From NCBI RefSeq assembly GCF_901765095.1, contig NW_021963017.1:174253-238252 (forward strand): 64,000 nt of DNA, written 5' to 3'. Made by a program: the position numbers and the translations under genes. The notes below the pieces were generated by a model that was not told the DNA's origin, did not search any database, and was given only the letters and a program-made list of their open reading frames with translations. Position 1 is the stretch's first letter; each line of letters opens with the position of its first letter. Shown here piece by piece: positions 11,756 through 13,875 of this stretch. Origin of the DNA: Microcaecilia unicolor (Eukaryota).

Positions 11756-11757
11756 TA

Positions 11758-11965
11758 CAGTGGGGGAAATAAGTATTTGATCCCTTGCTGATTTTGTAAG
11801 TGTGCCCACTGACAAAGACATGAGCAGCCCATAATTGAAGGGTAGGTTATTGGTAACAGTGAGAGATAGCACATCACAAATTAAATCCGGAAAATCACAT
11901 TGTGGAAAGTATATGAATTTATTTGCATTCTGCAGAGGGAAATAAGTATTTGATCCCTCTCGCAA
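11758..11965. repeat. Tc1 left IR/DR (the right IR/DR is at 13143-13350)
   Basis: The two ends are reverse complements. Over the ~165 bp I compared by eye (outer, inner and intervening segments) I saw no mismatch. Each holds two copies of the gggaaataagtatttgatccc transposase-binding-like direct repeat. Confidence 0.85.
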
Positions 11966-11972
11966 ACAAGAC

Positions 11973-13025
11973 CTAATACTTGGTGGCAAAACCCTTGTTG
12001 GCAAGCACAGCGGTCAGACGTCTTCTGTAGTTGATGATGAGGTTTGCACACATGTCAGGAGGAATTTTGGTCCACTCCTCTTTGCAGATCATCTCTAAAT
12101 CATTAAGAGTTCTGGGCTGTCGCTTGGCAACTCGCAGCTTCAGCTCCCTCCATAAGTTTTCAATGGGATTAAGGTCTGGTGACTGGCTAGGCCACTCCAT
12201 GACCCTAATGTGCTTCTTCCTGAGCCACTCCTTTGTTGCCTTGGCTGTATGTTTTGGGTCATTGTCGTGCTGGAAGACCCAGCCACGACCCATTTTTAAG
12301 ACCCTGGCGGAGGGAAGGAGGTTGTCACTCAGAATTGTACGGTACATGGCCCCATCCATTCTCCCATTGATGCGGTGAAGTAGTCCTGTGCCCTTAGCAG
12401 AGAAACACCCCCAAAACATAACATTTCCACCTCCATGCTTGACAGTGGGGACGGTGTTCTTTGGGTCATAGGCAGCATTTCTCTTCCTCCAAACACGGCG
12501 AGTTGAGTTCATGCCAAAGAGCTCAATTTTTGTCTCATCTGACCACAGCACCTTCTCCCAATCACTCTCGGCATCATCCAGGTGTTCACTGGCAAACTTC
12601 AGACGGGCCGTCACATGTGCCTTCCGGAGCAGGGGGACCTTGCGGGCACTGCAGGATTGCAATCCGTTATGTCGTAATGTGTTACCAATGGTTTTCGTGG
12701 TGACAGTGGTCCCAGCTGCCTTGAGATCATTGACAAGTTCCCCCCTTGTAGTTGTAGGCTGATTTCTAACCTTCCTCATGATCAAGGATACCCCACGAGG
12801 TGAGATTTTGCGTGGAGCCCCAGATCTTTGTCGATTGACAGTCATTTTGTAGTTCTTCCATTTTCTTACTATGGCACCAACAGTTGTCTCCTTCTCGCCC
12901 AGCGTCTTACTGATGGTTTTGTAGCCCATTCCAGCCTTGTGCAGGTGTATGATCTTGTCCCTGACATCCTTAGACAGCTCCTTGCTCTTGGCCATTTTGT
13001 AGAGGTTAGAGTCTGACTGATTCAC
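11973..13025 (-). CDS. Tc1/mariner-family transposase, 350 aa with a DD34E catalytic domain
   Basis: [30 protein letters not shown]... is a paired-like helix-turn-helix. The catalytic motifs [21 protein letters not shown] and [15 protein letters not shown] are present. It is close to Sleeping Beauty and Tc1 transposases from my memory of those sequences. There are no internal stops. Confidence 0.9.
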
Positions 13026-13875
13026 TGAGTCTGTGGACAGGTGTCTTTCATACAGGTGACCATTGCCGACAGCTGTCTGTCATGCAGGTAACGAGTTGAT
13101 TTGGAGCATCTACCTGGTCTGTAGGGGCCAGATCTCTTACTGGTTGGTGGGGGATCAAATACTTATTTCCCTCTGCAGAATGCAAATAAATTCATATACT
13201 TTCCACAATGTGATTTTCCGGATTTAATTTGTGATGTGCTATCTCTCACTGTTACCAATAACCTACCCTTCAATTATGGGCTGCTCATGTCTTTGTCAGT
13301 GGGCACACTTACAAAATCAGCAAGGGATCAAATACTTATTTCCCCCACTGTATGATTAATGGAAAGAAAATTATCAGGTATGATTATACATAATTTTACC
13401 TTTATGGTTTATAATGGGCTGGGAAACCCAGATCCAATAAAAAAAAAAAAAGGTATCATCTTATTTTCTTTTTCATGTTTTATTTTGTTTGATTTCTATG
13501 GATAACCTTTAAGAGTGGACTAACACGGCTACCACACCTCTCTACCCAAGGCAATAGCAAACGTGATTTTTTTGCATTCTTTCCGTTAGGAGGGGATAGT
13601 GGGAATTGGAGAGTTTTCCAGAGGTCTGTGAAGGAGGTGAAGGGTTATATGAAAAATGTTTGACGTTGCTCAACAGCTTCATTATTTCCAATGCTGTATT
13701 GTAGATTTGTGCTGTGCTATATGCCTTTAGTTTTTTTTTATGTCAATAAAGATATTTCTTCACAAAAACACTAGCAAACTCCTCGTATGACTGCCTATTT
13801 GTAGCACATCTGTAAAAAGTCTAAAGCTGTTCCACTTGGCTAGGCGCTGTCTTAAAAAGCACAGGATAAATTATT

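Follow-up and report, generated by a model that had tools for sequence, protein, structure and literature searches.

The window analysed here is a 64-kb stretch of contig NW_021963017.1 (positions 174,253 to 238,252, forward strand), and all coordinates given below are positions within it. It contains a DNA transposon of 1593 bp at 11758–13350, which starts with CAGTG, ends with CACTG, is flanked by TA on both sides, and carries a transposase gene on the minus strand. The element lies inside the right terminal repeat of a DIRS-like retroelement. We are confident that it is a complete Tc1/mariner transposon of the autonomous kind, that it is of the DD34E/Tc1 type and belongs to the ZB-like clade, which is the sister of ZB and a cousin of Sleeping Beauty (SB), and that its insertion is probably recent.

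The two terminal inverted repeats (TIRs) are each exactly 200 nt long. The 3′ TIR, named relative to the transposase gene, occupies 11758–11957 and is complementary to the 5′ TIR at 13151–13350 with 0 mismatches; in a base-by-base comparison the earliest mismatch falls at element position 201. A repeat finder returned the same arms with the flanking TA included (11756–11957 and 13151–13352, 100% complementary), and we rejected chance as an explanation, since the length and the lack of mismatches exclude it. The TA target-site duplication is found at 11756–11757 on the window-left side and at 13351–13352 on the window-right side. A sequence-only reading of this DNA had described a TA-flanked element of 1593 bp with identical IR/DR (inverted repeat/direct repeat) ends of about 205 bp. 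The size and flanks hold, and exact alignment upholds the identity of the ends, with their length corrected to 200 nt. Each TIR contains two copies of the 22-nt core GGGAAATAAGTATTTGATCCCT, the outer identical to the inner. In the window-left TIR, these direct repeats are located at 11764–11785 (outer) and 11937–11958 (inner), and their mirror images in the window-right TIR at 13323–13344 (outer) and 13151–13172 (inner). The spacing of 173 nt between outer and inner repeats, with two copies per TIR, is the IR/DR layout, and on the Sleeping Beauty IR/DR model the four repeats are presumed to be transposase-binding sites.

The transposase gene (11973–12995, minus strand) consists of 340 codons, running from 12995 to 11976 between both TIRs, and a TAG stop at 11973–11975. 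It has no intron, no frameshift, and no internal stop. The mechanically called open reading frame (ORF) is longer (11973–13025, minus strand), with 350 codons counted from an upstream GTG; the first ATG, at 12995, stands in good Kozak context (ACAAAATGG) and gives a protein of 340 amino acids. An uninterrupted DD34E transposase had been claimed at 350 amino acids, and all but the length survives careful translation.

The protein has Pfam matches to three families, each above its curated cut-off. The first helix-turn-helix (HTH), which is PAI-like, spans residues 1–52 (12840–12995, minus strand; HTH_SB, 5.3e-25) and also matches the structure of the SB PAI subdomain, 2m8e. The second, RED-like HTH spans residues 72–140 (12576–12782, minus strand; HTH_Tnp_Tc3_2, 1.1e-22), and the DDE catalytic core spans residues 149–300 (12096–12551, minus strand; DDE_3, 2.3e-14), the latter also by alignment to SB100X. 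Two of these families, HTH_Tnp_Tc3_2 and DDE_3, had been suggested for a search by the sequence-only reading, which had already recognised a paired-like HTH at the N-terminus and all three catalytic residues. Both observations are borne out: the SB100X alignment and the motif positions (WSDETK at residue 151, HDNDPKH at 243, NPIENLW at 276) identify the triad as D153, D244, and E279, so that the third acidic residue is kept, with 34 residues separating D244 and E279. A codon check places them on the minus strand at 12537–12539, 12264–12266, and 12159–12161, respectively. An RSGAPRK (GRPR-like) motif at residue 57 just precedes the second HTH, and a KVPLL linker is present at residue 119. A comparison with solved structures ranks the SB100X catalytic domain 5cr4 first (E = 2e-89); it aligns gap-free over residues 114–340, and the SB PAI and RED subdomain structures are likewise matched. 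An AlphaFold2 model built from a 55-sequence alignment has a mean predicted local distance difference test score (pLDDT) of 61; the six helices of its DNA-binding domain score about 76–90, and the first HTH is modelled as three helices with pLDDT 80–90.

Between the 5′ TIR and the ATG lies an untranslated leader of 155 nt (12996–13150, minus strand), which is 74% identical to the corresponding segment of Mariner-15_DR, a zebrafish Repbase element. We infer that it acts as promoter and 5′ untranslated region. An AATAAA motif at 11918–11923 (minus strand), 50 nt past the stop codon and within the 3′ TIR, may serve as the polyadenylation signal, judging from its sequence. A scan for bacterial-type promoters and terminators gave 1 promoter-like site, where 2.5 were expected, and 0 terminators, a result that is uninformative for a eukaryotic element.

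Working order and age of the copy

To judge the condition of the transposase, we used an alignment of 55 full-length clade members, in which 56 columns are invariant; this protein matches them all. At 10 positions it has a residue other than the one shared by at least 90% of its relatives, and seven of these changes are conservative (T4S, V16I, K124R, I192V, K264R, V320I, K325R). Against three relatives, the ratio of non-synonymous to synonymous divergence (dN/dS) is 0.14–0.15, at dS 0.70–0.78, which implies that selection was keeping the transposase functional while most of the changes on the way to this copy arose. Because nothing is visibly broken, the copy should at least be mobilisable in trans and, from its sequence, may be autonomous; intactness of this kind is necessary for activity and not sufficient for it. 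By analogy, the two N-terminal HTH domains (PAI and RED) would bind the four 22-nt repeats and the element ends would be paired, with two repeats in each 200-nt TIR. The RNase-H-like site formed by D153, D244, and E279 would then excise the element by staggered cuts, and reinsertion at a TA dinucleotide would leave that TA duplicated on gap repair. For the present copy, the target TA lay about 115 nt inside the right terminal inverted repeat of a DIRS-like retroelement of the tyrosine-recombinase kind.

The host element is DIRS-like, with reverse transcriptase, RNase H, a recombinase-related ORF, and inverted terminal repeats of 115 nt. Its left repeat (5958–6072) is 99% complementary over 115 nt to 11642–11756, and its right repeat (11642–11757) is split by the transposon and resumes at 13353, where about 35 nt more are homologous to paralogous ends. 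The coding body (6145–11018, plus strand) holds a gag-like/LAP2alpha region (5e-17 by Pfam) and a reverse transcriptase (RVT_1, 3.9e-17), along with matches to RT_RNaseH (E = 7.5e-4, 20.1 bits, under the cut-off of 24.8 bits) and to a Dam-like methyltransferase (E = 0.0034, also under the cut-off) that are weak. The ORF at 9126–11015 has no direct Pfam recombinase match itself, and its relatives have Tyr recombinase or core-binding domain in their names, or else carry PF00589 or PF13495. Relatives of the DIRS ORFs are only 30–53% identical, first in the caecilians Rhinatrema and Microcaecilia, then in frogs, squamates, and turtles, an order that points to a probable amphibian, or else another tetrapod, as the source. 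The coding region lies in two frames, with an in-frame stop between the reverse transcriptase (8038–8808) and RNase H (8866–9978) segments, and some slight decay of the host element is therefore possible, even though its repeats are 99% identical. We also observed a second inverted homology outside the 115-nt repeat, in which 5372–5429 matches 13442–13499 at 55 of 58 positions. It is located about 515 nt from the left DIRS repeat and about 80 nt from the right one, with a run of 13 A at about 13442. Either the DIRS ends extend further and an indel distinguishes them, or the left end contains an additional insertion.

The 115-nt inverted repeat of the DIRS-like element stops exactly at the transposon. 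When the transposon and one TA are removed, the alignment to the left DIRS repeat continues, at 125 of 129 positions, and the reconstructed site is colinear with the DIRS-end fragments at 17135–17310 and 20020–20195, both of which read CA where TA is found here. This colinearity with paralogous DIRS ends indicates that the TA duplication is genuine. Insertion into a DIRS terminal repeat, as read from the sequence at first sight, is thus confirmed by the DIRS-type ORFs, the 99%-identical 115-nt repeats, and the colinear empty site.

Because the transposon is inserted in the DIRS repeat, it must have arrived after the DIRS element. The inverted repeats of the host differ at 1 of 115 positions, corresponding to about 1–4 million years (Myr), which gives soft support for youth. 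Identity of the transposon's own ends bounds a different interval, the time since the ends of this lineage last matched, with residence at the locus included. With 0 differences in 2 × 200 nt and assumed neutral rates, the 95% upper limit is 7.5 Myr at 1e-9 per site per year, 3.4 Myr at 2.2e-9, and 1.8 Myr at 4.13e-9, the last being the zebrafish rate of PMC7913693. The insertion is probably recent, a few Myr old at most, and the intact ORF and the 99%-identical DIRS repeats softly support this.

Several observations weigh against a young copy in full working order. The identity of the TIRs does not date the insertion as the identity of long terminal repeats would, because the ends of a cut-and-paste element come from its donor copy; the earlier argument that identical ends and an intact ORF mark a very recent insertion therefore stays plausible as to youth and fails as a means of dating. 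At the target, the left DIRS repeat is one base off (GCT-TGAT versus GCTATGAT), and the TA before insertion is deduced from paralogues and not from an allelic empty site. The catalytic domain of the AlphaFold2 model is poor, with pLDDT below 50 over most of residues 117–245, and gives no independent structural check. We ascribe this to an alignment of 55 sequences that is too shallow and whose members are too similar, and consider the gap-free alignment to 5cr4 the better evidence. Three departures from the relatives' consensus are non-conservative and could harm the function of the protein: P56Q, immediately ahead of the RSGAP motif, K100T, within the second HTH, and N296T. Furthermore, searches with blastn and tblastn found no second copy, intact or decayed, in the 64-kb window, a 30-mer of the TIR spacer and a terminal 27-mer had 0 exact matches in metagenome and viral contigs, and the best protein match is only 82% identical, with the exact protein (as either the 340- or the 350-amino-acid product) absent from a collection of 15 billion proteins.

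These points bear above all on one alternative, in which the same element looks intact yet is unable to transpose alone, either as a dead-on-arrival missense copy or as one silenced by the host and too young to have gathered stops or indels. Its 10 departures, P56Q, K100T, and N296T among them, compare with a median of 5 and a range of 0–17 in 54 relatives. The observed/expected CpG ratio is 0.34 in the element versus 0.45 in the window, as for methylated DNA, and no sister copy was found in the window, the protein collection, or the metagenome and viral contigs that would show recent amplification. On the other hand, neither the invariant columns nor the catalytic triad shows a change and the departures are mostly conservative, the dN/dS values reflect divergence mostly under selection for a working transposase, no flaw is seen in the four binding repeats or in either end, and the native relative ZB shares these features and is active (PMC7913693). 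On balance, we regard an immobile copy as nearly an even prospect. That the copy is a currently active, autonomous member of an unsampled ZB-like sub-lineage, usable as a native vector and orthogonal to SB and ZB, is a tentative proposal from its sequence, which we would not put as high as evens.

An improbable alternative is that the perfection of the copy is an artefact of assembly, a high-copy repeat having been collapsed or polished to its family consensus at a real locus that is more decayed. The case for this is a general one: polishing toward a consensus is a recognised hazard with multi-copy repeats, and the outcome would resemble an ideal element. However, unique and asymmetric DIRS sequence abuts the copy precisely at TA/TA, and taking the copy out gives back a clean empty site. 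Neighbouring repeats also keep their mismatches (99% in the DIRS inverted terminal repeats, 82–95% in other inverted repeats), so polishing has not generally erased divergence.

Clade placement

Homologues of ZB and SB have been split into four clades, ZB, ZB-like, SB, and SB-like, with coding-sequence (CDS) identity above 80% within the ZB-like clade and about 61% between it and ZB (Jia et al. 2022, PMC9777934). In that study, ZB and ZB-like elements share 54% identity in the DNA-binding domain and 68% in the DDE domain, and the ZB and SB groups share 34–38% and 58–61%, respectively. We placed the element by pairwise identities together with its structural profile, using the ZB and Mariner-15_DR sequences from the supplements of the ZB paper (PMC7913693). 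The SB sequence used gives 52.1% identity between ZB and SB, where 51.3% has been published, and is therefore roughly right.

At the amino-acid level, the transposase is 80.3% identical to that of Mariner-15_DR over the whole, gap-free alignment, with 72.7% in the DNA-binding domain (residues 1–110) and 84.1% in the catalytic domain (residues 114–340). The corresponding values are 60.3%, 55.5%, and 63.0% for ZB, and 52.6%, 41.8%, and 58.1% for SB; against the sequence of SB100X as printed in the PDB, the catalytic domain is 59.0% identical. The DNA-binding domain's identity to SB of 41.8% lies slightly over the published 34–38%, and the other domain values resemble the published between-clade figures. 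A protein search of 5.8 billion clusters returned more than 7000 relatives, all of them Tc1-type, the best with 82% amino-acid identity. The relatives at 82% are the Xenopus tropicalis protein A0A803K637 (a cluster of 171 members) and unnamed sequences from public read or metagenome assemblies; next come proteins of salmonids, catfish, and cyprinids, at 70–80%.

At the nucleotide level, the whole element, TIRs included, is 79.6% identical to Mariner-15_DR, and its 3′ TIR is 76% identical to the Mariner-15_DR TIRs. The CDS is 82.0% identical to Mariner-15_DR and 81.5% to contig L001 of an ENA metagenome assembly, which corresponds to the clade level of above 80%, with few clade members compared. 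Overall, the element has diverged by about 20% of nucleotides from every retrievable relative, and its TIRs are 75–77% identical to theirs. The contig L001 (ERZ26222911) itself carries, at 2653–4239, a ZB-like element of 1587 bp with an intact 340-amino-acid ORF and TA/TA flanks. In the CDS it shares 96% identity with zebrafish Mariner-15_DR; presumably, the assembly was made from an environmental or gut sample that contained fish DNA.

The structural profile agrees with this placement. The ZB-like rows of the published table describe elements of about 1.6 kb with 340 amino acids, a CDS of 1023 nt, TIRs of about 200/200, CAGTG/CAGTG ends, and TA/TA (PMC9777934). Examples are ZB-Micuni of Microcaecilia unicolor (1597 bp, TIRs 200/200), ZB-Xentro of Xenopus tropicalis and its counterpart in Bufo (1618 bp, 210/210), and ZB-Danrer1 of Danio rerio (1599 bp, 201/201). 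The element at this locus fits, with 1593 bp, 340 amino acids, a CDS of 1023 nt, TIRs of 200/200, CAGTG ends, and TA/TA. Mariner-15_DR is very probably ZB-Danrer1, since it is the only autonomous zebrafish Tc1 in Table S3 of Shen et al. with 201/201 TIRs, CAGTG, and 340 amino acids.

The label Tc1/Sleeping-Beauty-like, given at first sight, is apt for the IR/DR architecture and misleading for the clade, as the identities to Mariner-15_DR, ZB, and SB show. Membership in the Sleeping Beauty clade proper (SB or SB-like) would account for the 340 amino acids, the IR/DR architecture, the HTH_SB match, and SB100X as best structural match, but it is very unlikely, with 52.6% amino-acid identity to SB and 59% in the catalytic domain versus 60% to ZB and 80–82% to ZB-like proteins. 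In addition, the stop codon is 16 nt outside the 3′ TIR, and overlap of the ORF with the 3′ TIR marks the SB branch only (PMC9777934); the SB-like branch has no such overlap (Jia et al. 2022, PMC9777934). We therefore rejected the SB branch on the low identity and on the 3′ TIR without ORF overlap. Finally, a domesticated transposase gene, co-opted by the host, would also have an intact ORF under purifying selection, but we dismiss it as next to impossible, because the perfect TIRs, direct repeats, and TA duplication are retained, the gene is placed inside another transposable element in a repeat-dense region, and purifying selection of this sort is a between-lineage pattern typical of horizontally spreading Tc1 elements.

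Other repeats of the window

The window has 45% G+C and an observed/expected CpG ratio of 0.45, and is both repeat-rich and CpG-depleted. It holds at least one long interspersed nuclear element (LINE) and another element bearing a reverse transcriptase; an Rfam scan of the whole window returned no match. The LINE-like element (47627–52354, plus strand) consists of several broken ORFs, with an endonuclease/exonuclease/phosphatase domain at 49042–49791 and a reverse transcriptase at 50712–51512. At 24898–25398, an inverted repeat of 249 nt, 95% complementary and with 3 nt between its arms, forms a near-perfect palindrome of 500 nt that adjoins minus-strand reverse-transcriptase ORFs (21799–24247, RVT_1). 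It could represent head-to-head DIRS-type ends or an assembly foldback.

Inverted repeats of 188 nt, 82% complementary and 1082 nt apart, occur at 15543–17000, a span of DNA-transposon size in which tblastn found no Tc1 transposase remnant. Two hairpin-like repeats (16275–16470 and 20414–20621) have arms of 90–96 nt that are 84% and 91% complementary, with loops of 16 nt, and probably represent one palindromic family; each is near a DIRS-end-like fragment (17165–17237 and 20049–20121). Tandem arrangements were also seen, with about four copies of a 75-nt unit at 35586–35870 (70–82% identical) and two copies of a 226-nt unit at 18576–19094 (spacing 293 nt, 90% identical).

Comparison with named systems

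The sequence-only reading had been made on the premise that naturally active Tc1 elements are rare in vertebrates. This premise is outdated, because Passport (PMC2651795) and ZB (PMC7913693) are both native and active, and because, of 316 positive genomes, 183 are reported to contain intact ZB-like copies, with fish, frogs, and reptiles among the carriers (Jia et al. 2022, PMC9777934). The latter study lists 5188 intact ZB-like copies in Microcaecilia unicolor, 3020 in Bufo bufo, and 742 in X. tropicalis. Its authors regard further active members as probable and ask for them to be tested (Jia et al. 2022, PMC9777934), and a literature search turned up no open-access activity screen of ZB-like elements. 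What is new here is only a divergent ZB-like member with perfect ends, of a kind already known in detail, and the find thus adds a member and not a new principle.

Native active Tc1 elements of vertebrates are nonetheless of practical interest, since ZB, Passport, and the reconstructed SB serve as tools for gene transfer and mutagenesis, and such elements mark ongoing genome turnover. With its perfect ends and its open, constrained transposase gene, this copy is a reasonable candidate for a direct activity test. If it were active and orthogonal to SB and ZB, it would provide a native vertebrate gene-transfer vector without reconstruction. Its nesting in a 99%-identical DIRS repeat is, in addition, a small relative-age marker of recent mobile-element activity in this genome.

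Compared to the ZB-like Mariner-15_DR, the element shares 21 of 22 positions of the inner-repeat core, where the leading 21 nt GGGAAATAAGTATTTGATCCC match and the 22nd is T here and C there. The outer repeat of Mariner-15_DR reads AGAGTAAAAAGTATTTGATCCC, whereas in this element the outer repeat is the same as the inner 22-nt core. The left and right TIRs are 100% identical to each other in this element, 97% in Mariner-15_DR, and 95.5% in L001.

ZB (Tc1-8B_DR) from zebrafish, which is native and highly active (Shen et al. 2021, PMC7913693), resembles the present element in its overall design, with 1597 bp, 341 amino acids, 201-nt TIRs that are 100% identical, and a TA duplication (PMC7913693). 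Its terminal motif CAGCGGGGAAAATAAGTATTTGA resembles CAGTGGGGGAAATAAGTATTTGA of this element, but its ends are CAGCG and not CAGTG. ZB differs further in that activity and 19 intact copies more than 99% identical have been shown for it (PMC7913693). Passport, from Pleuronectes platessa, has been placed in one clade with ZB (Jia et al. 2022, PMC9777934) and is likewise a vertebrate Tc1/DD34E element, one whose native copy is active in vertebrate cells (PMC2651795). Frog Prince, from Rana pipiens, is a further vertebrate element of the Tc1/DD34E type. It is of the Txr/Tc1-1_DR-type lineage, in which the N-terminus (MPRSKEIQ..., compare Tc1-1_DR) is unlike that of this protein.

Sleeping Beauty shares with this element the 340 amino acids, the triad numbering 153/244/279, a DNA-binding domain composed of PAI and RED, and two binding repeats per end. 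In contrast, the ends of SB are unlike each other and its 3′ TIR overlaps the ORF (PMC9777934). Given one 22-nt core in all four repeats and identical ends, the present element has no built-in left/right asymmetry as described for SB. Furthermore, Sleeping Beauty is a reconstruction from dead copies, whereas the copy at this locus is naturally uninterrupted.

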